The notes: generated by a model not told the origin, from the letters alone. Positions 1 to 34,659 are shown, counted from the first letter of the stretch. The stretch is 64,000 nucleotides of DNA from Candidatus Binataceae bacterium (GCA_963803045.1 CAWDLC010000019.1:17542-81541); one strand, 5' to 3'. A program made the numbers and translations.

Positions 1-999
1 GCTTCACTTTCGCCGTCGAGGGTGAACCCACGGTCGACTTGATTGCCCGGGGAGTGCGAGCAGGCGCGCGAGGAACAGTGCGACGTGGTCGTCGCCATCG
101 GCGGAGGCAGCGTCATCGACGCGGGAAAAGCCATTGCCGCGCTGCTCACCAATCCCGGCGAGTTGATGGATTATTTGGAGGTGGTGGGCAAGGGGAATGC
201 CCTCCAGAATCCTGCCGCGCCGTTCATCGCCGTGCCCACCACGGCGGGGACGGGGTCAGAGGTCACGCGCAATGCGGTGTTGGGCGTGCCCGCGCGGCAA
301 GTGAAAGTCAGCCTGCGCAGCCCGTTCCTTCTGCCGCGCCTGGCGGTGGTGGACCCGGAACTGACTCTCGGCCTGCCGCCGGCGATTACCGCGCGCACCG
401 GACTCGACGCGCTGACGCAGTTGATTGAGGCCTATGTTTCGATCCGCTCGAACCCCGTGACCGACGGATTCTGCGTGCAGGGAATTCCGCTCGCGGCGCG
501 TTCGCTGCGCCGGGCGTTTCACCAGGGGCATGACCCGGAAGCGCGGCGCGATATGTCGCTCGCGGCGCTGTTCAGCGGATTGGCGCTCGCCAACGCCGGC
601 TTGGGCGTCGTCCACGGATTTGCCGCTCCCCTGGGCGGAAGGTTTCCCGCGCCGCACGGAGCGATTTGCGCGGCCATCCTGCCCTATGGGATGGAAATCA
701 ACCTGCGCGCCCTGCGTGCTCGCGCGCCCCAAAGCGATGCGCTGCGCCGTTACCAGGAGGTGGCGCGCATGCTCACGGGGCGGCCCGACGCCACCGCCGA
801 GGACGGAATTGCGTGGACGCGGGAGATTTGCCGGGAACTCGAAATCCCGCCCCTCAAGGCCTATGGGATCGGGGAACAAGACGTTGCCGATCGCTCATCG
901 CGGAAGCAGCCAAGGCGAGCAGCATGAAAGGGAATCCTCTGGCGCTCACGCCGGAGGAGCTGGCGCGAAGTACTGGACATTGTCGATTGCCGAGTGTGA
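1..999 (+). CDS. iron-containing (group III) alcohol dehydrogenase, 5'-partial, with two compensating frame changes near 890 and 965
   Basis: The frame-1 translation (ORF 43..927) has the Fe-ADH motifs VVVAIGGGSVIDAGKAIA and VPTTAGTGSEVT. The C-terminus continues in frame 3 (LIAEAAKASSMKGNPLALTPEELAR, inside ORF 666..1094), then returns to frame 1 (EVLDIVDCRV) and stops at TGA 997-999. The gene is open at the window start. Confidence 0.8.
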
Positions 1000-1162
1000 C
1001 GATTTCCGGTTTCGCGCTACAGAGCGTTTCTCACAGAGGTCGCAGAATGGCTCCAGAGCGCGAGAAACCCCGCTCTTCTCCGTGTCCTCTGTGAGCACTC
1101 CGTGGCCTCTGTGTGAAACGCCCTTAAGCCGGAAAACTGGGGGCTAGGCGAAACTTTCCCGT

Positions 1163-2105
1163 CTATTCCCGTTTCATTTGCAGATTCTGTAACGCTTCCG
1201 CCTCCGTCTTGGCGTTCAGTGCCTTTGCGAGTGCTTCGACCGTCGGCTTGAGCTCCCGGCCTTCTGCCAAGTAAAGTCTGATACATCAGTGGATAATACT
1301 TCGTGTAGGTCTCATCAAAGGCCAGACCGGCATTGTTGTTGGCGGCCAGACACCGGTTGAACGATTTCGGCTCGGGGCTGATGGCCGTGCACGCCTGGTG
1401 AATTTCCTCGAAAGCCTGCTGCTTTTGCTCCAGCGCGTCGTGCTCGGAAATCTGGCCGGCGCGCGCGGCGGCGTACAACTGGCTCAATTGGGCGTGATAG
1501 CGATTCACGATTTCAGCTTTGCGGGCGAACAGTTCCGGCTCGCGCTGAAGGTTTTGATAGACCTCCGAATTCTCGCCAAACTTCTGCCGCGCCACTTCGG
1601 CGGCGGTGAGAAATCCGATCAGGGTTGCAGACGCTTCGCCCCAGGCTGCCGGCAGTTTGCGTAATTCCTTATTGGCGTGGAAATCCTCGTGCGGAACGAC
1701 CACCAGAAAGCGTTCCACCGACTCGTGCGCCAAGGAGGCGGAGACGGGCGTCTTGCCGCTGGCGTTGGCGTCCATGGGGTAAAAGAACACATCGTATTTT
1801 TGCGTGTCGAGCGGGCAGCCCGCCTTCGTTCCCTGCAACAGTTGCAGCTCCTGATAGGAATCGGGGAGTTCGAGTTTGCCGGTGTAGTAGCAGCGATAAG
1901 CGACGGCGGATTCCGCTGACTCCTTGTGGAAGTTCTTCGTCCGGCGGAAACCCAGTTTCTTTTCCAAACGCTTGACGGCGCTGACCAGGTCTTTGCGGTC
2001 CGCAGCGTTGGGATTTTGGGGCGTGTCGGTGGCAGCAGCAAGGCCCGCAAGCAGCGCCACGAGCACGAGGGTCAACAAAAAGAGCCATGGCGTGGATATC
2101 TTCAC
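1163..2105 (-). CDS. secreted HExxH metallopeptidase-like protein (putative aminopeptidase family), one frame change near 1280
   Basis: ORF 1017..2105 opens with a signal peptide (MKISTPWLFLLTLVLVALLAGLAAA) and contains VVPHEDFH (HExxH). After ...TKYYPLMYQ a protein-like tail (LYLAEGRELKPTVEALAKALNAKTEAEALQNLQMKRE*) lies in another frame and stops at 1163-1165. The family name is from memory only. Confidence 0.5.
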
Positions 2106-2235
2106 ACTTTCATTGTAAACGTATTTCCCGCGGCCGGAGTAGCGACCGTAGCACGGCGCGGCGGAGCCGCATGCTCAGCTTGACTTGTACATACGATTAC
2201 GCTATATTATATATACAACACTTGAGGGTAGGCAC

Positions 2236-2424
2236 ATGGCGGTGACACTCACATCGATAAGGCTGGATACCCATCTGGCGGACGAAGCCCGAAAAGTTCT
2301 CGGCGTGAAATCCCGGACGGAGGCGGTGCATGTAGCGCTCCGGGAGATTGTGGCGCTGAAGCGATTCAAGGACTTGATGAGGAAGCACGCGGGAAAGCTC
2401 TCGTTCGCGGGTCACGGTGAGTAA
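2236..2424 (+). CDS. vapB: type II antitoxin, VapB-like
   Basis: A 62-aa product (MAVTLTSIRLDTHLADEARKVLGVKSRTEAVHVALREIV...) starts at ATG 2236. Its end overlaps the downstream PIN gene start by 8 nt, which is classic TA architecture. Confidence 0.75.
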   Translation: MAVTLTSIRLDTHLADEARKVLGVKSRTEAVHVALREIVALKRFKDLMRKHAGKLSFAGHGE

Positions 2425-2824
2425 CCTCGTCATCTTCGACACTTCGATCTTCATCGATCATCTGCGCACCGGATGTCATCAGCAGCGAATCGAATCGCTG
2501 ACCGGTCTCATCCGAACGTCTTCCGTGGTTTTGGCGGAGTTGTGGCGTGGCGCGACGGAACCGGCGGAGCGGGAGTTCCTGCGAGCGCTGGAGAAGAACC
2601 ATCGCATCCTGACGCCCACGGAAAATAATTGGCTGGAGTCTGGCCGGCTGCTGGGGCAAATTTACGCGGATAAAGGCTTCACGCCCGACAAACTGCGCGA
2701 CCTGCATTTCGACGTGCTCATCGCGCTCACCGCGCGGTCTCACGGCGCCCGGCTGATCACCTCCAACCGCGCCGATTTTGAAATGATCAGCGCCTACCGG
2801 AAATTTCAATTGGAAATATGGTAG
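2417..2824 (+). CDS. vapC: PIN-domain ribonuclease toxin VapC
   Basis: A 135-aa ORF with a GTG start. The N-terminal LVIFDTSIFIDHL carries the PIN acidic residue, and ...DVLIALTARSHGARLITSNRADFE is a typical VapC C-terminal motif. Confidence 0.85.
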   Translation: MSNLVIFDTSIFIDHLRTGCHQQRIESLTGLIRTSSVVLAELWRGATEPAEREFLRALEKNHRILTPTENNWLESGRLLGQIYADKGFTPDKLRDLHFDVLIALTARSHGARLITSNRADFEMISAYRKFQLEIW

Positions 2825-2847
2825 CTCCAGCCCCGGCAGTAAAAAGA

Positions 2848-2904
2848 GCAACAAAAAGGTTGCGTTTTCCGCACTGCCGCGCTAATCTGCAACCTGGAGG
2901 TTGC
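2848..2904 (+). promoter_or_regulatory. two GCAAC(C)-N-GGTTGC palindromes upstream of the SRPBCC/ArsR pair (candidate ArsR operator)
   Basis: GCAACaaaaagGTTGC (2848-2863, followed by GTTTTCC) and GCAACCtggaGGTTGC (2889-2904) both occur here. The second overlaps the GGAGG ribosome-binding site 10 nt before ATG 2911. ArsR/SmtB repressors typically bind such dyads. Confidence 0.3.
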
Positions 2905-2910
2905 CTAACA

Positions 2911-3364
2911 ATGGATCAATCGAATTGAAAAGCGTATTGAACTCAAGGCGCCGGTTTCGCGGGTCTGGCGGGCGCTGACGGATTACCGTGAGTTCGGCGA
3001 GTGGTTTCGCGTGAAACTGGAGGGCCCGTTCGTGCCGGGCCAGGTCTCGCGCGGCCATATTACCTACCCTGGCTACGAGCACGTCAAATGGGAGGCCGTG
3101 GTGCAGAAGATGGAGCCCGAACGGCTCTTTTCCTTCACCTGGCACCCTTATTCCGTCGATCCCAAAATAGATTACTCGAAGGAGACGCCCACGCTCGTCG
3201 AATTCCGGCTGGAGAAGACCGCGACCGGCACACTGCTTCTGCTCACGGAGTCCGGTTTCGACAAAATCCCCAGCGACCGCCGCCTGGAAGCATTCCGCAT
3301 GAATGACGGCGGCTGGACAGAGCAAATGAAGAATATTGAGAGCTATGTCGCACAAAAGCCGTAG
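2911..3364 (+). CDS. SRPBCC (AHSA1/START-like) family protein; start region has a one-base frame problem
   Basis: ORF 3011..3364, plus the same frame upstream, reads NRIEKRIELKAPVSRVWRALTDYREFGEWFRVKLEG...FRMNDGGWTEQMKNIESY. That frame is closed by TAA at 2906-2908 and has no start codon. The only ATG with an RBS (2911) is one base out of frame. Confidence 0.7.
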
Positions 3365-3692
3365 CAGCATGACCGCCAAACGGCAGGCTCATGCATCCGT
3401 CTTTGCCGCGCTGGGCGACGAGACGCGGCTATCGCTGGTGGCGAAGCTTTGCCGCGGGCAGCCGCGTTCGATCTCTCAGCTCACCGCGGGCTCCAAGCTT
3501 ACCCGGCAGGCGATTACCAAGCATCTTCGCGTGTTGGAGAGGGCGGAAATCGTGCACAGCGTCCGTACGGGCCGCGAGAGCCGGTTTGAACTCGATCCGG
3601 AGCCGATGGAAGAACTCAAGAAATACCTCGATCTCGTCTCCGCGCAGTGGGATCAGGCCCTGTCCAGGCTAAAATCGTTCGTCGAGGGTTGA
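3345..3692 (+). CDS. ArsR/SmtB family transcriptional regulator
   Basis: The winged-helix signature is FAALGDETRLSLVAKLCRGQPRSISQLTAGSKLTRQAITKHLRVLERAEIVHSVRTGRESRFEL. The start is ATG 3345 (alternatives 3336 or 3369). It overlaps the end of the SRPBCC gene, a common pairing. Confidence 0.85.
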   Translation: MSHKSRSSMTAKRQAHASVFAALGDETRLSLVAKLCRGQPRSISQLTAGSKLTRQAITKHLRVLERAEIVHSVRTGRESRFELDPEPMEELKKYLDLVSAQWDQALSRLKSFVEG

Positions 3693-4022
3693 GTGCTTGT
3701 GCCCTTTGATCTCGTCGTAAACGATGATCGACATCACGACGAGAACCCACACGGGGAAGACTCCCATTCCCGGAATGGCTTCGACGATCAGCCCTGGCAA
3801 AAGGGCCCACCTTCGACCCAGAATCAGGAACAGCAGGCCTGCCGTTCCCAGGTCAAGCACCCACTGGATGGGCGGAGCAAATTCGGTCCACATGGATAAG
3901 AAATCCGAGATCGCAGCCACGCCAAAAGCGATGGCAAATCTGGCGCGGGAGACACGTTTGATCGGAACAATCTCCTGCCCCGGGCTGACCACGACAGGCC
4001 GATTTTCGGTTTTCATCAACAT
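3669..4022 (-). CDS. small hypothetical membrane protein
   Basis: A 117-aa product starts at ATG 4022 (MLMKTENRP...). It has two or three hydrophobic spans (FAIAFGVAAISDFL, LGTAGLLFLILG, GVFPVWVLVVMSIIVY). I do not recognise a family. Confidence 0.45.
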   Translation of the reverse strand: MLMKTENRPVVVSPGQEIVPIKRVSRARFAIAFGVAAISDFLSMWTEFAPPIQWVLDLGTAGLLFLILGRRWALLPGLIVEAIPGMGVFPVWVLVVMSIIVYDEIKGHKHSTLDERF

Positions 4023-4375
4023 GGTGTCCCCCGCCCTGATCGCATCTTCTTCAAGCCCATCGTGCCATGTTCGCGCGCGATCCGCAAGCGAGCGCGATGG
4101 CCCGACCAAGTCTGTAAAAATTGGTGACGTTGCAAGTAGATCTGGATGCCGAGGCTCTGAGCGGCAACTGTTGCCTTTTGCTCGCCGCGACTCTGCGCGG
4201 TTCACTACTGCTATCAGCGTTCGAACGGGAAGGCTTCCGCACTCCATATTTTGTTGGATGTCGCCGCGTCAGGTGGGCGGGGTGAGCAGTCCGCGTGCAC
4301 TTCCTCTTCTGGTGGGCAAGGCGCTCTCTAAGTACAATCAAGTCCGGCTCGCGCGCTGCCTGAGTTCCTAAACCC

Positions 4376-5245
4376 ATGTCAAAACGGTTGATCTCCATGC
4401 GTAGTGTCCGCCTTCTTATTCTTCTGCTAATCGTTCTCACCGTGGCTTTGCCCGCGCCCGCGCAGAACCCTTGGGAGCGCTTGCCAGCCACTCCTGCGCT
4501 ACCCAAGCCGGAGCGCAGCGGCACCGTCCCGGTGAACGGCATCCGCATGTGGTACGCGGTATTTGGCCACGGGTCTCCGGTGATTCTCCTGCACGGCGGG
4601 CTTGCCAACTCGAACTATTGGGGACTTCAGATTCCCGGCGCTTGCCCCACACTTTGAAGTGATCGTGGTTGACAGCCGCGGTCATGGCCGCAGCACTCGC
4701 GATGGCGAGCCGATCACCTATCACCTGATGGCGATGGATGTGCTTGCGCTGATGGATGCTCTGCACATCCCCAAAGCCGCGCTGGTGGGTTGGAGCGATG
4801 GCGCGATCATCGGCCTCGACATCGCCATCCATCATCCCGAGCGGTTAACCAAGCTCTTTGCCTTCGGAGCGAATTCCAACCTCTCCGGCGTGAAAAGCAG
4901 CGAGGGCAGCGCCATCGTTTGCCGCCTACCAGAGCCGCACCCGGGAAGAATACCGCAAGCTCTCGCCGACGCCTGCGGAGTTCAATGCGTTCCGCGAGCA
5001 ATTGAACAAGATGTGGACTACGCGAGCCGAACTTTTCCGATGCTCAACTCCGCAGCATCACTATGCCCACCTGGATCGTGGATGGCGACCGCGACGAGAT
5101 CATCAAACGCGAAGATACCGACCACATGGCGAGTCTCATCCCCGGCGCCGGCGAACTCATCCTGCCCCGCACCAGCCATTTCGCGTTTCTTCAGGACCCG
5201 AAACAATTCAATGAAGCCTTGCTGCACTTTCTTGGCAGCGAGTAA
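4376..5245 (+). CDS. alpha/beta-fold hydrolase with signal peptide; three +1 frame changes (about 4632, 4912, 5025)
   Basis: Four pieces in successive frames join cleanly. They are: MSKRL...GSPVILLHGGLANSNYWGLQIP; then ALAPHFEVIVVDSRGHGRST...LVGWSDGAIIGL (nucleophile elbow GWSDG); then PSFAAYQSRTREEYRKLSPTPAEFNAFREQLNKMW; then EPNFSDAQLRSITMPTWIVDGDRDEII...SHFAFLQDPKQFNEALLHFLGSE*. Confidence 0.8.
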
Positions 5246-5299
5246 CCACGATGATGGGCAGACCCGGGCCACTTCGCTTCCGGCAAACGGGCGTGCCTT

Positions 5300-5399
5300 G
5301 TAGCGCGGGCATCCTGCCCGCTGGGGCGTGGGCATCCTGCCCGCGCACATCGCGCGAGCGGGACGCTCCCGCCGACAGCGGGCAAGATGCCCGCGCTAC
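5300..5399. repeat. REP-like cluster of four short GC-rich hairpins bounded by a 22-bp inverted repeat
   Basis: The hairpins are GCGGGCAtccTGCCCGC (5306-5322), GTGGGCAtccTGCCCGC (5328-5344), GCGGGAcgcTCCCGC (5358-5372) and GCGGGCAagaTGCCCGC (5378-5394). The outer 22-mers at 5300-5321 and 5378-5399 are reverse complements with one mismatch. The cluster lies in the intergenic region between the hydrolase and mazE. Confidence 0.6.
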
Positions 5400-5478
5400 G
5401 CCCCTTTCGCTGCTATGTCGCACACCCCCGGCAAACCGTCCGCTTGCAGCCCGGTGGACATGTGGTTATACTCAGGGT

Positions 5479-5715
5479 ATGAAAACTGCCGTATCCATTC
5501 CTGATGACGTTTACCATGGCGCGGAGCGTCTGGCGCGCCGCGCGAAGAAGTCGCGCAGCCGGCTGTATGGTGATGCGCTCAAGGAATACTTGGCCCGCCA
5601 CGCGCCGGACGAGGTCACTGAGGCGATGAACCGGGCGTGCGCGGAGGTGGGCGAAGCGAATGATCCCTTCGTTTCGGCAGCCTCGCGCCGCATCCTGGAG
5701 CGAAGCGAGTGGTAA
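5479..5715 (+). CDS. mazE: ribbon-helix-helix/MazE-like antitoxin
   Basis: A 78-aa product, MKTAVSIPDDVYHGAERLARRAKKSRSRLYGDALKEYLARH..., starts at ATG 5479. Its end overlaps the MazF gene start by 7 nt. Confidence 0.7.
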   Translation: MKTAVSIPDDVYHGAERLARRAKKSRSRLYGDALKEYLARHAPDEVTEAMNRACAEVGEANDPFVSAASRRILERSEW

Positions 5716-6053
5716 TCTCCCAAGGCGAGATCTGGTGGGCGGATCTTCCCGCCCCAGCGCGCTCCGGCCCGGGATTCCGCAGGCCGGTTGTCGTCGTGCA
5801 GGGTGATGCATTAAATCGGAGTCGCATTTCCACCGTGGTCTGTGTTCCGCTGACCAGCAATCTCAAATGGGCCTTGGCCCCGGGAAATGTCCACCTGCGG
5901 GCACGTCACACCGGCCTGCCGAAAGATTCCGTCGCCAATGTTTCCCTGATCGTCAGTATCGATAAGGAGTTCCTCACCAAACGCGTGGGCAAACTTCCAC
6001 CCTCCAAACTGCAATTAGTGCTCGCGGGGATCGATACTGTCCTGGGTAAGTAG
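5709..6053 (+). CDS. mazF: MazF/PemK family endoribonuclease toxin
   Basis: A 114-aa ORF with a GTG start. GEIWWADLPAPARSGPGFRRPVVVVQGDALN...VVCVPLTS...NVSLIVSIDK matches the MazF/PemK fold signature. Confidence 0.85.
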   Translation: MVISQGEIWWADLPAPARSGPGFRRPVVVVQGDALNRSRISTVVCVPLTSNLKWALAPGNVHLRARHTGLPKDSVANVSLIVSIDKEFLTKRVGKLPPSKLQLVLAGIDTVLGK

Positions 6054-6312
6054 CAGCCAAGGTCAGCGCCGGGTGCCGCTCGAATTTTATGTTGCTCGCG
6101 CAACGGCGGGGGAGCATGATGGCGTGTGTGCGGTGAGAGCCATGCAGGTTGAGGTTGGGACTGGCAAACCGAAGAGACGCGACACATAATGACGGCTGGC
6201 CCGCAGATGCACCGATAGACCTTTCAGATGTGGCGGAAGTAGTGGCCGCTGTGGGTATCCAAATAGACGATCGTGTACGCGCTCACGTAAGTTCTCAAGT
6301 GAGGCCTGATCC

Positions 6313-7229
6313 TTGGAAGAACTAACGACAGCATACTACGAAAACCTCTTTCGCCTTCGGTACGTCGAGTCTAAGGGTGATGTCTTTCAGGACTTCTTCT
6401 CAACCGTCATGGAAATGAGATATCCCGGCGATTTTGTTCGCGTCCGCCCTTGGGGGAACCTCGGAGACCACAAAAACGACGGCTATCTCGCTTCCAAGCG
6501 ACACCTCTTTCAGTGTTATGCACCCCGCGAAATGAAGATGACGGAATGCAAGGCCAAGATCAATAAGGATTTCGCCGGAGCGCTTCCATATTGGAAGGAT
6601 TATTTCGACAAGTGGTTTTTTACGCACAACAATATCGATGGCCTTCCAGCGGACATTCTGAAACTCCTTCTCGATCTTAGTACGGCACATGCCCCCGTGT
6701 GCGCTGCCCAGTGGGGGTATGGTGAGCTGCGGCAGGAATTCAAGCAACTATCTGAGGTAGACATCTCGAAGCTTCTCGGTCCTGCGCCAAGCCGGAAGGA
6801 GATGGTAGATTTGCGGCTTGAGGATGTGAAAAGGTTGCTGGAGCACGTCGCTCTTCTGCCCGAGCCGCGAGCGGTCGATGTAAGACTCGTCCCCGCTGAC
6901 AAACTCGAATATAACCAGTTGTCGCAAGCCGTCGGGACATTGTTGAAGGCCGGCATGACGCGTTCTGAGCTCGTGAAAAAATACCTCCGTGGTATTGCCG
7001 ATCAAACCAGTTACGATCGCACGGCCGCCGCGTTCCGATTGCGCTATCAGGAGTTGAAAGGAGAGGCCGCGCCCCAGACGATATTTTCGCCGGGCTGCAG
7101 AGGTTCATTGCCGGTGCGGGCGTCGCGAGCCCATCACATCAAGCGGCAACACTTGCCATTCTGGCGTTTTTCTTTGAGGCGTGCGAGATTTTTGAGCGGC
7201 CGCCCGAATTGACGGGTACCTTGTCATGA
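6313..7229 (+). CDS. ABC-3C-like system, first (effector-type) component; one frame change near 7070
   Basis: This is ORF 6313..7212 with a TTG start. The N-terminal region has RPWGNLGDHKNDGYLASKRHLFQCYAP (a GD-x3-DG...Q-x-[K/Y] pattern like Mrr/PD-(D/E)xK nucleases). The C-terminal half is helical. The true tail (RAPDDIFAGLQRFIAGAGVASPSHQAATLAILAFFFEACEIFERPPELTGTLS*) is in another frame and ends with the TGA of an ATGA overlap at 7226-7229. Confidence 0.55.
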
Positions 7230-7477
7230 TTCTTCCTACCAAAGGTCTGGCGCTTGACCGGGCGCTTCTCTCCGTGGGCGCAGAAGTTCTTCGACGACTG
7301 GACAGGCCCAAGACCGTATCACGGCTATGGGATCAAGTGCGGCACCCTAAGAGCAGCCTTCTCGAATCAGTTCCGTATGAATGGTTTCTTCATTCGCTCG
7401 ACTTGTTGTATCTGTGCGGCGCGATCGATTTTGAAGATGGCCAAATTCGCCGGACTCACCGGAGGGCGACCCGATGA
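7226..7477 (+). CDS. ABC-3C-like system, middle component (small helical protein)
   Basis: An 83-aa ORF (MILPTKGLALDRALLSVGAEVLRRLDRPKTVSRLWDQV...) has ATGA overlaps with both neighbours. Its size and its position between the effector and the ATPase fit the 'middle component'. Confidence 0.55.
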   Translation: MILPTKGLALDRALLSVGAEVLRRLDRPKTVSRLWDQVRHPKSSLLESVPYEWFLHSLDLLYLCGAIDFEDGQIRRTHRRATR

Positions 7478-9260
7478 TTCATTGTGTGTTTAGCTCCCTC
7501 AAGACATTCAAAACTCTGCACTTTGCGAGGGGACTCAACATCCTACTTTCAGATAAAATGCCCGACGCAACCGAACAACAGACTCGTAATCGCACGGGGA
7601 AGACAAGCTTCATTGAATTGGTTCATTTCATTTGTGGGGGAAACTGCCGCGCGGACTCCATATTCAGGGCACCAGAACTTATACCGTCGTCGTATGGGTT
7701 AGAGTTTGATGTCTTCGACCAAGTCGTGCAAGTTTCACGCTCCGGCTCTGAGCCATCGAAAATCATCTTGGAGCGTGGTGATGCCACCAAATGGCCGAAG
7801 CAACCGCAGGCCGAGGATGACCCACCCCGCAAGGTCATAAAGAACACGGATTGGCGGACAGTATTGGGACGTGGGTTTTTCGCCATTGATGATGAATCTG
7901 ACTCCGAAGAAGATGAGGGAAGCGGACGACGGCCCACTTTCCGTTCTCTGTTTTCATACTTCGTACGGCGGGAGAACAGCGGAGGGACATGCGAGATCCC
8001 GCTCAACAATACCGGCATGAACAATCGGTGACGACTCAAATCGCGTTGGCATTTCTAATCGGCTTCGACTGGACGATCGCTCAACAGTGGGAAGCGGTAA
8101 GGCAAAAGGGAGAAGCAGATTCGCGAATTGAAGCGAATTGTCGGCCAAGGTGTATTGACGGACGTGCTTGACTCAGCGGCTTCGCTACGGTCTCGTCTTG
8201 TTGTCGCGGACGAGAAGCTGAAGCGCATTATCAGGAATTTATCATCTTTTCGGGTCCACGAACAATATCACGCGTTCGAGCAGGAAGCTTCCGGGATTAC
8301 GCGGGAGATTGCTGGGGTTTCCGATGAAAACACTCTTGATCGCGCCTACATTGCGAACCTCGAAGCCGCGATGGAGGCGGAATCGCCGCCCGCTCCAGAC
8401 GATCTGATTCGTCTTTATGAAGAGGCGGGCATTGTGCTTCCTGACCTGGTGCGGCGACGGGATCGAGGATGTTCTGGTTTTCCACGATTCCGTAATGCGC
8501 AACCGCCGCAGCTACTTGCAAGGGGAATACTCGGCAGCTTCGGAGCGGGTGAAGAATCGCGAGGCGCGGCGGGAAGGACTTGATCAGCGGCGGTCCCAGC
8601 TGATGGAAATGTTGAAGTCACATGGTGCACTAGAACAATTCATAGCCCTACAGGCAGAGCAAGGGAGACTCCAAGGCGAGGTTGAGGCTCTCCGCCGCAG
8701 GTACGAGGCGGCAGCCCAACTAGAGTCAACAAGCTCTTCCCTCGAATCTGAACGTGTCAACTTGGTGGCGAGGCTACGGCAAGAGTTTGAGGAAAGAAGC
8801 GCTGTTCTTGACGATGCGATCAGAGGATTCAGCGCCATCGTTGAGGAACTGTACGGAGAGTCCGGGCGCATCGAGTTCCACGCCAAAAACAATGGGCCGG
8901 AGGTTCGAATCGCTATACCCGGTGATCGGAGTCGGGGTATCGGAAATATGGAAATATTTTGCTTCGACATGATGCTTCAGTTAATGTGTGCCAGGCAGAA
9001 AATCGGGCCGGGTTTTTTGATCCATGACAGCCATCTTTTCGATGGAGTCGATCCGCGTCAGACGGCTCGAAGCCTTGGCCGTCGGCGCACGGCTGGCCGA
9101 GAAAATCGGATTTCAATATATCGTCACCCTGAACTCAGATGTCTTGGCTGAGTTGTCATCAGCGGATTTCAATGCAGATAGGTACTTGGTATCCCAACGT
9201 CTCACGGATGCCACAGAGGACGGAGGCCTTTTTGGAATCCGCTTTGAACCTCCCGGCATC
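7474..9260 (+). CDS. ABC-3C-like system, coiled-coil ABC/SMC-type ATPase (DUF2326/YydD-like); four frame changes (about 7990, 8110, 8455, 9070); 3' end uncertain
   Basis: ORF pieces 7474..8031, 7989..8171, 8128..8583, 8417..9151 and 9024..9542 join into about 590 aa. The protein has a P-loop ([18 protein letters not shown]) and a long coiled coil ([50 protein letters not shown]). It then has [19 protein letters not shown], a Walker B/D-loop ([14 protein letters not shown]) and QYIVTLNSD...GGLFGIRFE. The last frame has no stop before 9542. An indel in the T5 run at 9229-9233 would give a stop at 9244-9246. Confidence 0.65.
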
Positions 9261-9678
9261 GAACAAACGGAGGACGGCAGGAGCCGCCCCTTGCGTCGTC
9301 GTGGTCGTAGCGCAGCCGCCGCTCCTGAGAATCCGACTCCGCAGCCGGCCGCAGCACAACGCGGCCCGCGCCGAAACGTCCGACCACTTCGTGCGGAATT
9401 GTACCGTCCTGGATCGGCACGCGCACCAGGCTTTTCTTGGCCCGATCGACGCCCTTGCGAATCGCCTCGGGCACTTCGTTGGCCTTGCCCAAGCCAAATC
9501 CCACCAGCCCGTTGTGATCGCCTGCGACCACCAGCGCGCTGAAGCTGAAGCGCCGTCCGCCCTTGACGACCTTGGCGACGCGGTTGATATGCACGACCTT
9601 CTCTTTGATCTCGAGGCCCTGCGGATCGATTCGCTGCGTAACAGAGCTTTCTCTTAGCGTTCGTTGCCTGCCGTTCAA
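9202..9678 (-). pseudogene. rpsE: 30S ribosomal protein S5 (uS5), 3'-truncated; homology ends at about 9340
   Basis: The first 113 codons are canonical ([49 protein letters not shown]...[14 protein letters not shown]). The remaining 45 codons ([15 protein letters not shown]...) are non-homologous and run antisense into the ATPase gene's 3' end. Confidence 0.8.
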
Positions 9679-10037
9679 AATTTTAACCCCGCTTCGCGCG
9701 CCGCATCGGCCAGCGCCTTGACGCGGCCGTGATAGAGAAATCCGTTTCGGTCGAACACGACGCTCGAAATCCCGCTCTTAAGGCATCGCTCGGCAATCGC
9801 CTTGCCCACGGCCTTGGCCGCCGCCAGGTTGCGCTTGCTCTTGAGCCCCTCGCGCACGCCGGCGGTGGCGGTCGAAGCCGCGGCGAGCGTACGTCCGCTC
9901 TCGTCGGAGATAACCTGGACGTAAATATGATGCAGCGAGCGGAAGACCGAGAGCCGCGGGCGCTGGTCGTTGCCGACCGCCTTGCGCCGCACCCGGTTCT
10001 GGCGCAGCTTGCGTTTTTCTGATCGCTCTACAGCCAT
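9675..10037 (-). CDS. rplR: 50S ribosomal protein L18
   Basis: A 120-aa intact ORF with [20 protein letters not shown]...[28 protein letters not shown], at the expected spc-operon position. Confidence 0.95.
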
Positions 10038-10052
10038 AATCGCAACTAACCT

Positions 10053-10604
10053 TTATGCCGCGGTCGAGCCCGCCGCAGCCTTGCCTGCTTTGCGGCGAAT
10101 GGTCTCGGTCGCGTACTTGATTCCCTTGCCCTTGTACGGTTCGGGCGGCCTGAGTTCGCGAATCTGGGCCGCGACCGTCCCGAGCAGCTGCCGGTCGGCG
10201 CTCTCGAGGGTAACGGTCACCTGTTTCTCGACTTTGGCGGTGACCCCGGGCGGAAGCTGATAGACGATCGGATGCGAATAGCCGAGCGTCAGGTTGACTT
10301 GCTGGCCCTTGGCTTCCGCGCGGTAGCCCACGCCGTTTATCTCGAGCACGCGGGTAAATCCCTTGCCGACGCCCTCGACCATGTTGGCGATCAATTTGCG
10401 CATGAGACCATGTATGGCGCGCTCTTCGCTGCTATCGCCCGGCCGCTTCACGACGATTTGCGAGTCCTTGATCTCGGCGGTGAAGCCGGGATGAAGCTGG
10501 AGCTCGAGCTTGCCCTTGGGGCCCTCGACTTTAACCGTCGTGCCGGCGACCGACGCCTTGACGCTCTTATCAAGATGAATCGGCAGTCTTCCTATCCGCG
10601 ACAT
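10053..10604 (-). CDS. rplF: 50S ribosomal protein L6
   Basis: A 183-aa intact ORF with MSRIGRLPI...INGVGYRAE...LGYSHPIVY...PEPYKGKGIKY. Confidence 0.95.
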   Translation of the reverse strand: MSRIGRLPIHLDKSVKASVAGTTVKVEGPKGKLELQLHPGFTAEIKDSQIVVKRPGDSSEERAIHGLMRKLIANMVEGVGKGFTRVLEINGVGYRAEAKGQQVNLTLGYSHPIVYQLPPGVTAKVEKQVTVTLESADRQLLGTVAAQIRELRPPEPYKGKGIKYATETIRRKAGKAAAGSTAA

Positions 10605-10610
10605 CGCTGA

Positions 10611-11009
10611 TCACCAAACCCTGCAGAGGATTTCGCCGCCCACGTTCCTGCGCCGCGCCTCGCGTCCGGTCATTACGCCGAGCGGCGTCGATACGATTTG
10701 CACGCCCATCGCGCCCCGCACCTTGCCGATCTCTGCGGCGCCCGCGTAGCGTCGATTGCTCGGCTTGCTGATGCGGTCGATTCCGCGAATCACCGATTCG
10801 CGCGTCGGTGAGTAACGAAGTTTGAGCGCCAGCATCTTCTTGGGCACTTCACCGCCAACCTCGACGCCGCCGAGGAAACCTTCGGCCATCAGCACGCGGC
10901 AAATTGCTTCGCGCATGCGGGAATGGGGCACCGTGAGTTCATTGTACCGCGCGCGCATCGCATTGCGGATTCGCGTAAGCAGTTCTGCGATCGGATCGGT
11001 CTGCGACAT
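10611..11009 (-). CDS. rpsH: 30S ribosomal protein S8
   Basis: A 132-aa intact ORF with DPIAELLTRIRNA...GGEILCRVW. Confidence 0.95.
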   Translation of the reverse strand: MSQTDPIAELLTRIRNAMRARYNELTVPHSRMREAICRVLMAEGFLGGVEVGGEVPKKMLALKLRYSPTRESVIRGIDRISKPSNRRYAGAAEIGKVRGAMGVQIVSTPLGVMTGREARRRNVGGEILCRVW

Positions 11010-11021
11010 GATTCGTCTCTT

Positions 11022-11207
11022 TTACCAGCTCGCCTTGATCACGCCCGGCAACTTGCCGTCGAGCGCCAGTTTGCGCAGACAAAGCCTGCACATTTTGAAA
11101 CGCCGATAGTACGCGCGCGCGCGTCCGCATAGCGGACAGCGGTTGTACCGGCGCACTTTGAATTTTGGTTCACGGGTTGCCTTAACCCGCAGGCACATTT
11201 TCGCCAT
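11022..11207 (-). CDS. rpsN: 30S ribosomal protein S14, type Z (zinc-binding)
   Basis: A 61-aa ORF with CPLCGR...CRLC and the GVIKASW end. Confidence 0.95.
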
Positions 11208-11217
11208 TCAACTATCC

Positions 11218-12050
11218 TTATGCCCCCTGCGCCGGTGCCAGCGCCGCCGCGGCTGCGGCGGCGGCCTTGGCGGCAGCTGCGGCCTCGGCGGCGGCCGCAG
11301 CCTTGGCCGCGTCCGCCTCGCGCTCCGCCGCTCCGCGCATCGGCATCCCGAGCGCGCGGAGCAGCGTCAGCCCCTCGAAGTCACTGCGCGCCGTAGTCGT
11401 GATCGAAATTGTCAATCCCTTCACCTTCTCGACCTTGTCGAGGTTGAGTTCGGGAAAAATCGTATGTTCCTTCAGCCCGAGCGAATAGTTGCCGCGGCCG
11501 TCGAACGCCTTGTCGCTGACGCCGCGGAAGTCGCGCACGCGCGGCAGCGAGATATTCACCAGCCGGTCGAAAAACTCCCACATCTTTTCGCGCCGCAGCG
11601 TTACCATCACGCCAATCGGCATCCCCTGGCGCAGCTTGAAATTCGAAATCGCCTTGCGCGCGCGCGTCAACACCGGCTTCTGCCCGGCGATCACTTGACA
11701 GCTCTTCGAGCGCGGAGTCGAGAATTTTGACGTTGTCGCGCGCTTCCTGGAGCGCCATGTTAATCGTGATCTTCTCAAGGCGCGGCACCCGCATCCGGTT
11801 GTCTATCTTGAGCTCGCGCATCAGGGCCGGCGCGATCTCATTGTCGAACCGAACCGCAGGCGGGCCGGCAGCTTGGGCTCGGGCGGCAGCGGCGCCGCAG
11901 CCGCGGCCTTGGCTTGTTCGGCCGCCTGCTTGCTCTGAGCCTGGCGGGCCTTGCCTTCGCGCTTGGCCTTGGCCGCCTGATCGGACTTGGCGGTCTGTTC
12001 GGACTTGGCGGCTGCTCGGCCTTGTCGGGCTTTCCCTTTTTGTCGGCCAT
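11218..12050 (-). CDS. rplE: 50S ribosomal protein L5 with low-complexity N- and C-terminal extensions; three frame changes (about 12010, 11853, 11698)
   Basis: The conserved core is [36 protein letters not shown]...[46 protein letters not shown]. It is split over ORFs 11381..11821 and 11218..11778. The only start is ATG 12050 (TGATG overlap with the rplX stop), which opens [36 protein letters not shown].... Confidence 0.85.
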
Positions 12051-12382
12051 CAGTCGTTACCTATCACTTCGCCGCAGCGGCGGCAGACCCGGCTCTTGGC
12101 GCCGTCAGCGGCAACCTTGACCCCGACCCTGACCGGAGCGTTGCAGCGATCGCAAAAAAACATGACGTTCGAGATGGCGATGGGCGCTTCCTTCTCGACG
12201 ATACCGCCGGGGCTCTGCGCGCCGCGCGGCTTGCTGTGACGCTTGACGATATTGAGCCGCTCGACGATGACGCGTCCGCGCTCCGGCAGCACGCGCATCA
12301 CCTTGCCGGTCTTGCCCCGGTCGCGGCCGGTGACGACCATCACGATGTCATTCTTCTTGATTCTGTATTTCGCCGACGCCAT
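12050..12382 (-). CDS. rplX: 50S ribosomal protein L24 (with C-terminal Cys4 ribbon)
   Basis: It has the KOW motif IKKNDIVMVVTGRDRGKTGKV. The C-terminus carries CDRC-x19-CRRC, as I recall for Thermus L24. The start is ATG 12382 (GTG 12385 is an alternative). Confidence 0.9.
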   Translation of the reverse strand: MASAKYRIKKNDIVMVVTGRDRGKTGKVMRVLPERGRVIVERLNIVKRHSKPRGAQSPGGIVEKEAPIAISNVMFFCDRCNAPVRVGVKVAADGAKSRVCRRCGEVIGND

Positions 12383-12751
12383 CACAGCACCTCCGGCGCG
12401 AGCGAGATGATCTTCAGAAACTTTTTCGCGCGCAGCTCGCGGGCCACCGGTCCAAAGATGCGGGTGCCGACCGGCTCGTGATCCTTGTCGAGCAGCACCG
12501 CCGAGTTGCCGTCAAAGCGGATGTAACTGCCGTCGTCGCGGCTGATTTCCTTGGCCGTTGCGCACGATAACCGCGCGCGACACGTCGCCCTTTTTGACCT
12601 TGGCGTTGGGAATCGCCTCTTTGACCGCGACCACGATCACGTCGCCGACCGACGCGTATCGGCGCTTGGAGCCGCCAAGCACCTTGATACACATCACTTT
12701 GCGGGCGCCCGAGTTATCGGCGACATCCAGAACCGTTTGTACCTGTACCAT
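12382..12751 (-). CDS. rplN: 50S ribosomal protein L14; one frame change near 12555
   Basis: ORF 12512..12751 gives [27 protein letters not shown]...SRAVIVR. The remainder ([57 protein letters not shown]) is in another frame and stops at 12382-12384. Confidence 0.9.
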
Positions 12752-12760
12752 CGCGCTGCC

Positions 12761-13015
12761 CTACCCCGCGGCCTTCTTGAGAACGCGGCTGACGCGCCAG
12801 CGCTTGTTCTTCGAGAGCGGGCGCGACTCGATAATCTGCACGCGATCGCCTTCCTTGCACTCGCCGCGTTCGTCGTGCGCCATGAAGCGGGTGCTGCGGC
12901 GCACGCGCTTGCCGTACAAGGCATGCTCGACCATGCGGTCCACCCTGACCACCACGGTCTTGGCCATCTTGGCGGACACCACAGTGCCCTCGCGCCGTTT
13001 AATTCGTTCCCGCAT
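12761..13015 (-). CDS. rpsQ: 30S ribosomal protein S17
   Basis: An 84-aa intact ORF with [18 protein letters not shown]...[27 protein letters not shown]. Confidence 0.95.
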
Positions 13016-13232
13016 TGACTACCTTCTTGTCCGCCGCAGCCGGGCCGCGCGCTTTCTCACCGAGCAAAGTCATGATGAGCGCCAGCTCGCGGCGTGCGCG
13101 GCGATAGCCGGCGTGATTATCCAGCTGATTGGTGCGCAGCTTGAGCCGCAGCCGGAAAATTTCCTCGCGCGCCTCGCGCTCCTTGACGCGCAAATCCGGC
13201 GCGGTCATCTGCCTTAGTTCATCAAGCTCCAA
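12999..13232 (-). CDS. rpmC: 50S ribosomal protein L29
   Basis: A 77-aa ORF with a TTG start and [33 protein letters not shown]. It overlaps both rplP and rpsQ. Confidence 0.9.
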
Positions 13233-13647
13233 GGCCGCCCTCCTCGCGCTGGATCATAATTGTTTTTATCGGCAGCTTGTGCGCCGCCAGCCGCATCGCT
13301 TCTTTTGCCGTGGCGTAATCGACGCCTTCCATCTCGAACAGAATCCTGCCCGGCCTGACGCACGCGACCCATCCTTCGGGCGAGCCCTTGCCCTTACCCA
13401 TGCGGGTTTCGGCCGGTTTTTTGGTGAAGGGCTTGTCGGGGAAGACGCGAATCCAGACGCGGCCGCCGCGCTTGATATGGCGGGTCAGCGCGATACGAGC
13501 GGCTTCGAGGGCGCGGGTATCGATGCGGCAAGTCTCGAGCGACTTGAGTCCATAGTCGCCAAACGCGAGCGTGAGTCCGCGCGACTCGGCGCCGCGGACG
13601 CGGCCCTTCATCATTTTGCGCCATTTAACTTTTTTTGGTGCGAGCAT
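13222..13647 (-). CDS. rplP: 50S ribosomal protein L16
   Basis: A 141-aa intact ORF with [16 protein letters not shown]...[16 protein letters not shown]. Confidence 0.95.
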
Positions 13648-13656
13648 TTTGGTTCG

Positions 13657-14334
13657 TCAATTCGCCTGCGCAGGAGCGCCTGCGCGTTTCGCGTCCGCAT
13701 CCTTGCGGGTGAGAACCTCGCCGCGGAAAATCCAGACCTTCACGCCGATCTGGCCGTAGGTCGTGCGCGCTTCGGCAAATCCGTAAGCCACGTCCGCGCG
13801 CAGCGTCTGCAGCGGCACGCGACCCTCGCGGTACCATTCCTGCCGCGCGATTTCCGCGCCGCCCAGGCGTCCGGCGACGTGGACCTTGACGCCCTGCGCA
13901 CCCATCCGCATCGCGCGCGTGACGGCTTCCTTCATCGCGCGGCGAAAGGCCACGCGACGCTCGAGCTGGAGCGCGATATTCTCGGCGACCAGTTGCGGGT
14001 CGAGGTCGGGGCGGCGCACCTCGTGGATGTTGATAAACGAGTCGCGCCCCTTCATCAGCTTCTGGATATCGATCTTGAGCTTGTCGATTTCGGCGCCCTT
14101 CTTGCCGATGACGATGCCGGGGCGCGCCGTGTAAATATTTATTTTGGCCTTGTTGGCCATGCGCTCGATTTCAATCCGCGAGATGCCGGCGTGGTAGAGC
14201 CGCTTCTTGATGAAATCGCGCAGCTTCAAATCCTCGTGCAGCAATTTGGCGTAGTCGTGGCTCGCGTACCATCGGGAGTCCCAGCTTTCGATGATGCCGA
14301 GGCGAAACCCGCGCGGATGTACTTTCTGTCCCAT
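13657..14334 (-). CDS. rpsC: 30S ribosomal protein S3
   Basis: The start is the internal ATG 14334 of ORF 13657..14622. The translation has [15 protein letters not shown]...[17 protein letters not shown] (KH domain)...[10 protein letters not shown]. Confidence 0.95.
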
Positions 14335-14342
14335 CGAAGACC

Positions 14343-14681
14343 TCAGGACGCCCGTTCGTCCACGATTACCGTGAGATGGCTGGTGCGTTTGTGGATCGGC
14401 GTCGAATGCATATGTGCGCGCGTCAGCGATCGCTTCCAGGTCGGCCCGGTGTCGGCGGTCGCGCGTTTTACGAACAACTTGTCCTCGTCCACGTTCTGCT
14501 GATCGCGCGCGTTGGCGATTGCGGCCAGCAGAGTTTTGGAGACGAACCGAGCGGCCTTCTTGGGCGTGAACTCGAGGATCGACAGCGCCTGATCGACTTT
14601 CTTGCCCGCGATCAACTCGCATACAAGCGCGAGCTTGCGTGGCGAGATCCTGATGAAGCGGGTTCGCGATACGGATTCCAT
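14343..14681 (-). CDS. rplV: 50S ribosomal protein L22
   Basis: A 112-aa intact ORF with [34 protein letters not shown]... Confidence 0.95.
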
Positions 14682-14701
14682 GACTGTTACAACTTCCCCG
14701 C

Positions 14702-15028
14702 TTACGCGCCCTTGGCCGCGGCCGGAGCCGGTGCGGCGGGAGCGGCAGCCTGCTTCACTTCGCCCTTGCGATCGCCGGCATGACCGTGGAAGGTCCGGGT
14801 CGGCGCGAATTCGCCGAGCTTGTGGCCGACCATGTTCTCGGTGCAGTACACGGGGATGAACTTGTGCCCGTTGTGGACGGCGAACGTCAGCGCGATCATG
14901 TCCGGCGTTATCATCGAGCGCCGCGACCAGGTCTTGATGATTCGCTTGTCGCCCGAGGCGGACGCGGCGGTGACTTTTTTCTGCAGATGCCCGTCAACGA
15001 ACGGACCTTTTTTGAGTGACCTGGCCAT
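14702..15028 (-). CDS. rpsS: 30S ribosomal protein S19 (Ala/Pro-rich C-terminal tail)
   Basis: It has [12 protein letters not shown]...[29 protein letters not shown]...[13 protein letters not shown]. The tail is [17 protein letters not shown]. Confidence 0.95.
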
Positions 15029-15033
15029 AACGA

Positions 15034-15864
15034 TTAACGCTTCCCGCGCGGCCGGCGGCTAACGATCAGGTTGTCCGACGGTTGCTTCTTGCGCGTCTTG
15101 TAGCCCTTGGCGGGCTGGCCCCACGGCGACTGGGGATGGTTTCCCTTCGACTTGCCCTCGCCACCGCCGTGCGGATGGTCAACCGGGTTCATCGCGACTC
15201 CACGCACATGACTGCGCTTGCCAAGCCATCGCGAGCGTCCGGCCTTGCCGATAGAAATATTTTCGTGGTCGAGATTGCCGACCTGGCCGATAGTGGCGCG
15301 GCAATCGGCCTGCACCATCCGCTGCTCGCCCGAGGGCAGCTTGAGCAGCGCCATCTTGCCCTCTTTCGCCATCAACTGAGCCTGCACACCCGCGCCGCGC
15401 GCGAGCTTCGCGCCAGCTCCCGGTTTCATCTCGATGGCATGAACGACGGTGCCGAGCGGGATGTTCTTGAGCATGAGCGCGTTGCCCGGCTTGATGTCGG
15501 CATTCTCGCCCGACTCGACTTTGGCGCCGACCTTGAGCCCGTCGGGGGCCAGGATGTAGGTCTTGACGCCGTCGGCATAGTGGAGCAGCGCGATATTGGC
15601 GGAGCGATTGGGATCGTATTCGAGCGCGAAGACGACGGCCGGGATACCGTCGCGGTTGCGCTTGAAGTCGATCAGGCGAAGACGGCGCTTGTGTCCGCCG
15701 CCGCGATGACGCGAGGTCATGCGGCCGCGATTGTTGCGCCCGCCGGTGCGCTTGACCGGGACCAGCAGGCTTTTCTCGGGCTCTTTTTTGGTGAGCTCGG
15801 AGAAATCCGCTATCTGCATGAAGCGCTGGCCGGGGGTGCGCGGATTTAATTGTATGACTGCCAT
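15034..15864 (-). CDS. rplB: 50S ribosomal protein L2
   Basis: A 276-aa intact ORF with [19 protein letters not shown]...[18 protein letters not shown]. Confidence 0.95.
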
Positions 15865-15947
15865 TTTTCTTTTTTCAGCTTTTTTCAGTATCTCTTCTGT
15901 CTAGCTCCGAACTCTGTTCCGGACATCGCGCTTCGATGCGGTTCCGT

Positions 15948-16235
15948 CTACAGCCCTTCGAAGAATTCGATCTTGTCGCCTTCCTTGAGGGTTACGTAGG
16001 CCTTCTTCCAGTCCATCTGGCGGCCCTTGATTGCGCCTTTTTTCCGTTCCTTGCCCATGAAGTTCGAAGTGCGAACCTTGAGGACGGTGACATTGAACAG
16101 ATGCTCGACAGCCTCGCGAATCTTGTCCTTGCTCGCCCCCGGGCGCACGCGGAACAGCACCTGGCCGGCCTTTTCGCTGGCCATGGTGCCCTTCTCGGTG
16201 ATGATCGGCGCGAGAATCAGACTCTCGGGGTTCAT
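15948..16235 (-). CDS. rplW: 50S ribosomal protein L23
   Basis: A 95-aa intact ORF with LAPIITEKGT...FRVRPGASKDKIREAVEHLFNVTV...WKKAYVTL. Confidence 0.95.
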   Translation of the reverse strand: MNPESLILAPIITEKGTMASEKAGQVLFRVRPGASKDKIREAVEHLFNVTVLKVRTSNFMGKERKKGAIKGRQMDWKKAYVTLKEGDKIEFFEGL

Positions 16236-16891
16236 TTCGTTTCTCCGGCAAATCGGGCTTCAATTGCCTTGGCGGTCTGGCTGGTCATCACGAGTTCCCG
16301 GTAATTGAGCACGTCGTAAACGTTAAGCCCTTCGACGGCGAGCACCTTGTGCGCGGCGAGGTTGCGCGCGGCGAGAAAAAACTTGCCATCGCCTTCGCCC
16401 AGCACTATCAGCGCGTGCTCGAGGCCGAGCTTGTCGAGCGCGGCCTTGGCGGCTTTGGTTTTCGGCTCGGAAAGATCGAGCGACTCGACGACGAACAGCT
16501 TGCCGTTGCGGGCGCGATCGGAAATCGCGAGGCAGAGCGCGGCGCGCCACGCCTTTTTCGGCATTTTGTACGAATAGTCGCGCGGCTGCGGGCCGAAGAT
16601 GGTTCCGCCGTGACGCCATAGCGGGGATCGCGTCGATCCTGCGCGCGCGCGTCCGGTTCCCTTCTGCCGCCACGGCTTGCGGCCGCCGCCGGAGATGAGT
16701 CCCTTGGTCTTGGTGGACGCCGTTCCGGCGCGCCGATTGGCAAGCTGCATCCGGACCGCCTCGTGCAGCAGCGACGGATCGCCGTCGCGGCCGAAAACTG
16801 TGCCGGCGACTTCGAGCTCGCCGATTTTCTCATGGGCGGCCGAGTACAGCGGCAGCTTGACCGGCAATAGATTTTCGGTCCGCTCAGGCAT
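16232..16891 (-). CDS. rplD: 50S ribosomal protein L4
   Basis: A 219-aa intact ORF with GGGRKPWRQKGTGRARAGSTRSPLWRHGGTIFGP. Confidence 0.95.
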   Translation of the reverse strand: MPERTENLLPVKLPLYSAAHEKIGELEVAGTVFGRDGDPSLLHEAVRMQLANRRAGTASTKTKGLISGGGRKPWRQKGTGRARAGSTRSPLWRHGGTIFGPQPRDYSYKMPKKAWRAALCLAISDRARNGKLFVVESLDLSEPKTKAAKAALDKLGLEHALIVLGEGDGKFFLAARNLAAHKVLAVEGLNVYDVLNYRELVMTSQTAKAIEARFAGETK

Positions 16892-17554: not shown

Positions 17555-17559
17555 CGGCC

Positions 17560-17868: not shown

Positions 17869-17944
17869 CCTGGGAATACCGCGCCCGATTCGTTAAGCGC
17901 TCTGCTCCATCTCCGCTCGATTGCGCACCCTGCTTCGGTGTCCG

Positions 17945-19146
<1,202 letters not shown>

Positions 19147-19184
19147 GATGTAACCTCCGATTGAGCGCCTTGGCTCACGAGTCG

Positions 19185-21280: not shown

Positions 21281-21297
21281 CTAAAAAAACTCGGTGA

Positions 21298-21768: not shown

Positions 21769-21774
21769 ATAAGT

Positions 21775-22345: not shown

Positions 22346-30772
<8,427 letters not shown>

Positions 30773-34586: not shown

Positions 34587-34659
<73 letters not shown>

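Follow-up and report, generated by a model that had tools for sequence, protein, structure and literature searches.

A blunt join inside rpsE in an 84-kb metagenome contig, probably a technical chimera of Terriglobia-like and Candidatus Binatus DNA

The window studied here, a stretch of DNA of 64,000 nt, contains a single point at which homology to one phylum ends and homology to another begins. From the sequence comparisons described below, we consider this junction to be most probably (about 0.9) a technical assembly or read chimera of two phyla and not a real feature of either genome. DNA of a Terriglobia-like acidobacterium (1-9336) would have been joined head-on to DNA of Candidatus Binatus (9337-64000) in an 84.4-kb metagenome contig, and the join would cut the acidobacterial ATPase gene 4 codons before its stop and the Binatus rpsE gene after codon 114. 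An earlier note on this DNA, made from its sequence alone, had proposed three explanations for the truncated rpsE and chosen none of them. Our results strongly favour the first, a chimeric join, and the other two, a rearrangement or insertion and an artificial splice, are both disfavoured. The features on which the argument turns are as follows (window coordinates):

1..9336, unstranded: left block, Terriglobia-like (Acidobacteriota) DNA, colinear with contig L089 at 90-97% nucleotide identity, ending at 9336; its genes are Fe-ADH, an aminopeptidase-like gene, VapB/PIN, AHSA1, an ArsR-type HTH, an alpha/beta hydrolase, an RHH antitoxin/PemK toxin pair and an ABC-3C cassette
9336..9337, unstranded: putative blunt chimeric junction, from a three-way comparison of the window with the left and right parents
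9337..64000, minus strand: right block, Candidatus Binatus (Binatota) chromosome segment, from nucleotide identity to loci L001-L005, protein clusters and tetranucleotides; it holds the spc and S10 operons, tuf, fusA, rpoC, rpoB, a tRNA cluster and other genes, with many indel errors
9337..9678, minus strand: rpsE fragment (uS5 codons 1-114, N-terminal domain only), with Pfam PF00333 alone and 99.1% identity to residues 1-114 of the S5 of L003
9202..9336, minus strand: spurious read-through of rpsE, 44 codons, antisense to the ATPase 3' end and without S5 homology; the ATPase is coded on the other strand

The minus-strand open reading frame at 9202..9678 encodes a 158-aa product whose sole Pfam match is the N-terminal domain of ribosomal protein S5 (PF00333, residues 25-88, E=5.4e-31). 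The C-terminal S5 domain (PF03719), which is present in all relatives, gave no Pfam match in this ORF. When the full 181-aa S5 of a close relative (taken from L003, whose gene calls agree with those of L001) was searched against the window by tblastn, residues 1-114 alone were matched, at 9678-9337 and with 99.1% identity; residues 115-181 found no match in any frame of the whole 64-kb window at E<=1e-3. Against the 181-aa S5 of L001, the window product differs in one residue before the break, beyond which L001 reads GTGVIAAGGVRAV... and the window is unrelated. Up to the break the rpsE fragment shows 8 nucleotide differences to L001, 7 of which are synonymous. That the spc operon stops inside rpsE and that the S5 C-terminal domain is missing, as the earlier note had maintained, is thus borne out by Pfam, by tblastn over all window frames and by the end of nucleotide homology at 9337. 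Two of its details needed correction: the last conserved codon is 114 (the Glu is retained) and not 113, and the tail that the rpsE frame runs into the ATPase 3' end is 44 codons long, not 45. Since it is at 9337 that the window ceases to match the relatives at nucleotide level, no indel can bring the C-terminal domain back. Rescue by indel correction, the outcome that had been named as speaking against truncation, is ruled out: no S5 C-terminal homology was recovered and residues 115-181 occur in no frame.

The same kind of search (tblastn, any frame of the 64-kb window, E<=1e-3) gave no match for L30, L15, SecY, Adk, Map, IF1, L36, S13, S11, S4, RpoA or L17, and none of the genes from rpmD through rplQ lies within the window. 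A move of the downstream operon to another place in the window was ruled out by the null tblastn result for 13 downstream proteins and by blastn, which returned no second HSP. Apart from being cut short, the ribosomal cluster follows the canonical S10-spc-alpha arrangement. Its order in the right block, from tuf/rpsJ to rplR-rpsE, is colinear with the Binatus relatives, but the window stops at rpsE codon 114, whereas the relatives go on with rpmD, rplO, secY, adk, map, infA, (rpmJ), rpsM, rpsK, rpsD, rpoA and rplQ. These are the genes that had been reported as missing from the window, and the tblastn results agree with that report.

From 9337 onwards the window matches Candidatus Binatus. By blastn, window 9337-20071 aligned to Binatus loci at 94.9% identity, and the alignment begins at 9337 in all of them (8/8 loci). 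The sequence of the window L18 (9675..10037) is found in identical form on the 22 contigs examined, whose sources are metagenomes of peat and soil (JGI, NCBI, Logan). In each of the 8 distinct places shown among these contigs, L30 and L15 come next after a 181-aa two-domain S5; the longer contigs go on to encode SecY, Adk, Map, IF1, S13, S11, S4, RpoA and L17, and additional S5-bearing contigs likewise have the intact arrangement. GTDB representative genomes scanned with the full S5 gave the lineage as Candidatus Binatus/Binataceae (S5 97-98% identical); in these genomes homology begins at or after 9337, with a best nucleotide identity of ~89%, and no locus matches 1-9336. Cluster names point the same way: S8, L6 and L18 are named Candidatus Binatus sp., S5 likewise clusters with Candidatus Binatus, and the NudC-like gene (57.7 kb) groups with a Candidatus Binataceae protein. 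Some MAGs labelled Acidoferrum/Acidiferrales also carry Binatus-type ribosomal proteins.

The left block follows L089 (ENA ERZ25039544 contig_6739, 218,912 bp) in three colinear segments, window 1-2126 (90%), 2177-4093 (92%) and 4350-9336 (97.4% nucleotide identity), and the alignment ends exactly at window 9336, 14 nt short of where the ATPase gene ends. The named matches of PntA and PntB from L089 (86-94% identity) carry the names Terriglobia or Acidobacteriia bacterium, and some are encoded on 580-830 kb contigs; Binatia do not occur among the named matches of the two proteins. The part of this block next to the break is an ABC-3C cassette, which comprises the following:

6313..7226, plus strand: ABC-3C effector-type protein with a CTD10 domain (Pfam), lying in two frames in the window; the relatives' protein has 305 aa
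7226..7477, plus strand: ABC-3C middle component MC6, 83 aa, intact (Pfam MC6 PF20293, E=2.9e-18; 97.6% identity to the MC6 of L094)
7474..9336, plus strand: ABC-3C ATPase of the DUF2326/YydD family (CTD10 and DUF2326, from Pfam), spread over at least three frames and lacking its last 4 codons and the stop
9337..9542, plus strand: spurious extension of the ATPase ORF (ORF 9024..9542), antisense to rpsE, its own stop lost at the junction

Reconstructed from several frames, the ATPase is 96% identical to the 623-aa protein P0001 encoded on L089 and 92-96% identical to 623-aa homologues. Residues 532-619 of the L089 protein correspond to window 9072-9335 with 100% identity, and the final KMIA and the stop are missing in the window, so the gene is truncated 14 nt (4 codons and the stop) before its natural end. 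The label "ABC-3C ATPase" given in the earlier note is correct, as judged from Pfam DUF2326 and CTD10 and from the full length of the homologues (623 aa). So is the observation of a plus-strand ORF that reads antisense through rpsE up to 9542. What had been called the final frame of the gene is indeed open to that position, but it is one of at least three frames, all products of indel errors; the truncation and frameshifting of the ATPase had not been noticed. The effector protein of L094 matched the window by tblastn in frames 1 and 3, and the effector gene is intact in L089-L097.

Relatives of the cassette are complete. The 623-aa ATPase was found whole in 9/9 contigs (L089-L097), the MC6 and effector genes were called wherever the contig extends that far, and the order effector-MC6-ATPase in the window matches theirs. 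The ATPase is followed tail-to-tail by pntB in L089, L094 and L095, the latter two being short-read contigs with 92% ATPase identity, and L090-L093 carry the intact cassette within a different defence island. As a conflict system the cassette falls within the described ABC-3C class, in which it is nothing unusual, and it has no functional relation to rpsE. All three components (CTD10 effector, MC6 and DUF2326/YydD ATPase) are here and in the order known from relatives; the window differs by the frameshifted effector and ATPase and by the loss of the last 4 ATPase codons and the stop. The reading frames of the effector (two frames) and of the ATPase (at least three) are interrupted, and these are assembly defects, attributed to sequence errors and to the chimeric cut.

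At the junction itself the window reads GAATCCGA/CTCCGCAG, the slash marking the break, and in a longer view ...CTGAGAATCCGA/CTCCGCAGCCGG... Beyond the break the left parent continues with AGATGATAGCCTGA..., and before it the right parent reads ...CACTCCGGTGCC, ending in GGTGCC. The three-way comparison revealed no common bases, no microhomology and no filler at the junction. No tRNA, direct repeat or inverted repeat was found at or near it, and no mobile-element signature at it. The left relatives all end at or before 9336, the right relatives all start at or after 9337, and the ATPase and rpsE genes are both truncated at one base. A common repeat that could have misled an overlap assembler was sought and rejected; all that was seen is a GC-rich resemblance of 12-13 nt about 20 nt off.

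The junction appears once in the public record. Among more than 40 related loci fetched from either side, 0 cross 9336/9337. The 158-aa junction-spanning ORF forms a singleton cluster among ~15 billion proteins, derived from one 84,402-bp contig (NCBI and ENA), and one 84,402-bp contig is also the recorded source of proteins of the left block (the PemK toxin, the 185-aa and 244-aa ATPase fragments and the effector) and of the right block (S8, L6, an MFS transporter, NudC, KdpA and others). Words of 40 and 24 nt spanning the junction were not found in the JGI metagenome contigs, among which close relatives of both sides do occur.

Base composition changes at the same point. GC by position ranges over 0.54-0.62 in the left block and 0.62-0.64 in the right one (block means 0.58 vs ~0.63). 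For tetranucleotides, references were taken from DNA non-homologous to the window, the Terriglobia-like one consisting of L089 downstream and upstream sequence and L094. The left block correlates with this reference at r = 0.914 vs 0.864 with the Binatus reference, and it is the sole 9.3-kb chunk that fits the Terriglobia-like reference better than Binatus. When the right block was divided into sixteen 9.3-kb chunks, the 15 starting at or before 51,337 showed r of 0.955-0.974 to Binatus and 0.78-0.87 to the Terriglobia-like reference; the last one (54,337-63,672) is ambiguous, with r of 0.902 to Binatus vs 0.896 to Terriglobia-like. The compositional boundary that had been suspected at the break is therefore borne out, by the GC step and by the tetranucleotide switch at the junction. 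Lower-GC stretches are present inside the right block too, at 34-35 kb and 54-62 kb.

Compared with intact short-read relatives, many window genes are split into 2-4 frames by frame-breaking indels of 1-2 nt. These affect tuf, rplC, rplN, rplE, fusA, rpoB and rpoC in the right block and the hydrolase, effector and ATPase genes in the left block, at a density of ~1 per 0.8-0.9 kb on either side of the junction. For 14 ribosomal protein genes that are in frame, comparison with L001 gave 179 synonymous and 57 non-synonymous substitutions (dN/dS = 0.097). Because substitutions are dominated by synonymous changes, the lineage appears to be under normal purifying selection and the indels to be sequencing or consensus errors, not decay; pseudogenisation as the source of the frameshifts was ruled out by the dN/dS of ~0.10 and the similar indel density in both blocks. 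Errors of this kind point to a long-read assembly that is noisy and probably of low coverage. On both sides, sibling contigs of the relatives bear Flye-style names and come from consecutive ENA analyses (ERZ250394xx to ERZ250395xx). We infer a long-read platform for the source contig from the indel errors, the NCBI and ENA provenance and these sibling names. In the Microflora Danica long-read study, assembly was done with Flye --meta --nano-hq followed by one Medaka round (PMC12313526).

Taken side by side, the flanks are colinear with different references and both homologies end at the junction; the flank taxa differ (Binatus on the right, Terriglobia on the left) and the tetranucleotide profiles switch; and the junction was not reproduced in independent assemblies, as seen from the singleton ORF, the JGI words and the fetched relatives. 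Both ancestral arrangements, the rpsE-rpmD-rplO operon and the ATPase cassette with pntB, were seen intact many times. As the cut falls in both genes, each ORF continues without meaning into the antisense strand of the other. The likeliest route would be a single chimeric long read accepted by the assembler, possibly since the depth was too low for its rejection. Ligation of two molecules in library preparation could have given such a read, as could concatenation of two reads at base-calling. In ONT data sets, 1.7-8.2% of the reads are chimeric, interspecies chimeras included (PMC10025935).

The window shares with chimeric contigs of the ONT/metaFlye type the colinear blocks of two taxa that meet at one blunt point, the genes truncated on both sides, the junction confined to one contig, the compositional switch at the break and the indel-rich, noisy consensus. 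It differs from them in that the join was recognized in the assembled contig and not at read level, that the platform is a deduction, and that neither adapter nor low-quality filler is seen at the junction. The lack of adapter or filler speaks more for a ligation-type chimera or a polished consensus than for concatenated reads left unsplit. In a living Binatus cell, rpsE-rpmD-rplO-secY...rplQ would be expected intact, with the 3' half of rpsE reading GGCACCGGAGTGATC..., and in a living acidobacterium the ATPase gene would be expected to have pntB next to it. Two caveats attach to the chimera reading: the taxon labels of MAG proteins can be wrong, and mobile defence and toxin-antitoxin genes such as those of the left block can in principle move between phyla.

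A real recombinant formed in vivo is a very unlikely alternative. In one version, illegitimate recombination at the ATPase 3' end would have brought 55 kb or more of Binatus chromosome into a Terriglobia cell; in the other, an acidobacterial island would have entered rpsE in a Binatus cell that had another, intact rpsE elsewhere. The deposited contig does contain the join, the left block has genes of mobile type (toxin-antitoxin pairs, and an ABC-3C cassette that occurs in at least two genomic contexts), and frameshifts in foreign housekeeping genes could be read as decay. Yet their density is about equal in both blocks and dN/dS is ~0.1, so that they look like sequencing errors, and the rpsE fragment is under purifying selection up to the break. 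Both genes are cut without microhomology, att site, tRNA or repeat, the C-terminal part of S5 and the downstream operon genes are nowhere in the window, the junction is in no other contig, and the operon is intact in all Binatus relatives examined. The rpsE gene is essential, and its disruption, together with the uncoupling of secY, rpoA and other downstream genes, would be lethal without prior duplication. A real recombinant would have to survive either with its essential rpsE truncated or with more than 55 kb of imported foreign core genes, bear no trace of integration and be confined to one contig.

With respect to an island or integrative element placed in a gene, the likeness lies in a lower-GC block with toxin-antitoxin and defence genes that adjoins a housekeeping operon. 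Here, however, there is no integrase, att site, direct repeat, tRNA or remainder of the target gene in the window, and the left block is chromosomal and syntenic with the Terriglobia-like contig, housekeeping neighbours included, to window base 1. Insertion of a mobile element was ruled out, as no tRNA, direct or inverted repeats are present at the junction. We regard it as quite improbable that the molecule itself is real. It would then be the product of natural recombination between phyla, present in a living cell or in environmental DNA, and would link 55 kb or more of Binatus core chromosome (ribosomal operons, tuf, fusA, rpoBC) covalently to a Terriglobia chromosome where the ABC-3C cassette ends.

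It is very improbable that both blocks belong to one genome, with the junction an intragenomic misjoin or a true inversion or translocation. The GC gap of merely ~4-5 points, the lower-GC stretches of the right block (34-35 kb and 54-62 kb), the compositionally intermediate chunk at 54.3-63.7 kb and the Acidoferrum-labelled MAGs with Binatus-type ribosomal proteins could be taken in favour of a single genome. On the other hand, L089 and L094 DNA that does not overlap the window is unlike Binatus, with r of 0.78-0.87 for 15/16 right-block chunks vs 0.955-0.974 with the Binatus reference; the Pnt proteins of L089 match Terriglobia/Acidobacteriia alone among named matches, including those on 580-830 kb contigs; and a true inversion through rpsE would still be lethal. 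An artificial splice added after deposition is scarcely credible: the junction is perfectly blunt and without biological signature, as a splice would be, but the exact 158-aa junction ORF is in the public protein collection (NCBI and ENA, one 84,402-bp contig), and proteins of the left (PemK toxin, ATPase fragments, effector) and of the right (S8, L6, KdpA, NudC) are recorded from a single contig of that length.

With the technical chimera as the preferred reading, there is nothing biologically novel at the junction, which matches a known class of chimeric contigs in long-read metagenomes. The junction has no biological significance, and the finding is useful for quality control. An 84-kb MAG contig in the public record appears to combine DNA of two phyla. 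Two spurious products, the chimeric 158-aa "S5" and the extended ATPase ORF, are now in protein databases, and the many frameshifts of the contig make its gene calls unfit for inference of pseudogenes or gene loss. The fused contig would contaminate the MAG to which it belongs and could yield false calls of horizontal transfer or of a "truncated essential gene".

Frame-breaking indels of 1-2 nt were found on both sides of the junction at 9336/9337, at a density of approximately one per 0.8-0.9 kb. To the right (window 9337-31000), they interrupt the essential genes tuf, fusA, rpoB, rpoC, rplC, rplN and rplE; to the left (window 4350-9336), they affect the genes for an alpha/beta hydrolase, the CTD10 effector and the ABC-3C ATPase. 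Only a minority lie in homopolymers, and several consist of one extra base inserted after TT or T. The dN/dS of approximately 0.1 for substitutions in the window shows these indels to be consensus errors. The features of the right-hand block considered here are as follows:

11218-12050, rplE (counterpart at 7989-8819 in L001, a Binatus relative contig with an intact ribosomal protein operon)
14702-15028, rpsS
34199-35033, minus strand, five tRNA genes (Trp, Thr-GGT, Gly-TCC, Tyr, Thr-TGT)
54300-63700, genes for an HTH/PTS-EIIA-like regulator, two universal stress proteins, a HAD hydrolase, NudC, a sigma-54-type regulator and KdpA

The Binatus L5 protein comprises 276-281 aa vs. the typical ~180 aa, with an N-terminal Lys/Pro/Ala-rich and a C-terminal Ala-rich extension; the S19 tail is likewise Ala/Pro-rich. 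In related Binatus strains, two long-read contigs, ERZ25039470 contig_29804 (232 kb) and ERZ25039468 contig_46784 (126 kb), have their start or end within the same ribosomal protein operon, close to rplE/rpsN and rpsH. The region is conserved and multi-strain, and looks like an assembly trouble spot. Binatus-type S5, S8 and L6 proteins also occur on short contigs of several MAGs labelled Candidatus Acidiferrales, Acidoferrales or Acidoferrum (contig L009 and cluster members of the window S8/L6), a pattern that points to repeated mis-binning of, or cross-contamination between, co-occurring genomes of Binatus and acidobacteria.

The GC content dips at the tRNA cluster, which in minus-strand orientation is located upstream of the tuf copy at ~17.9-19.1 kb, at a distance of approximately 15 kb. 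The 54300-63700 stretch is atypical in composition, with a GC content of 0.54-0.60 and a tetranucleotide correlation to the Binatus reference of 0.90 vs. at least 0.955 in all other right-hand chunks. Its NudC nevertheless clusters with a Binataceae protein. The stretch may represent either an island or another join.

In the left-hand block, at 5300-5399, two 24-nt arms that are 96% complementary and separated by a 52-nt spacer form a near-perfect inverted repeat. It is adjoined by a 19-nt direct repeat, and an RHH-antitoxin/PemK toxin pair lies directly downstream. In the nine contigs related to window 6313-9336 (L089-L097), the ABC-3C cassette encodes a 305-aa CTD10 protein, an 83-aa MC6 and a 623-aa DUF2326 ATPase. 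It is adjoined by pntB and toxin-antitoxin genes in some of them, and in others lies within a different island with a SNF2 helicase, a large methylase-like protein and DUF4062. Judging from these two neighbourhoods, the ABC-3C cassette behaves as a mobile defence cassette.
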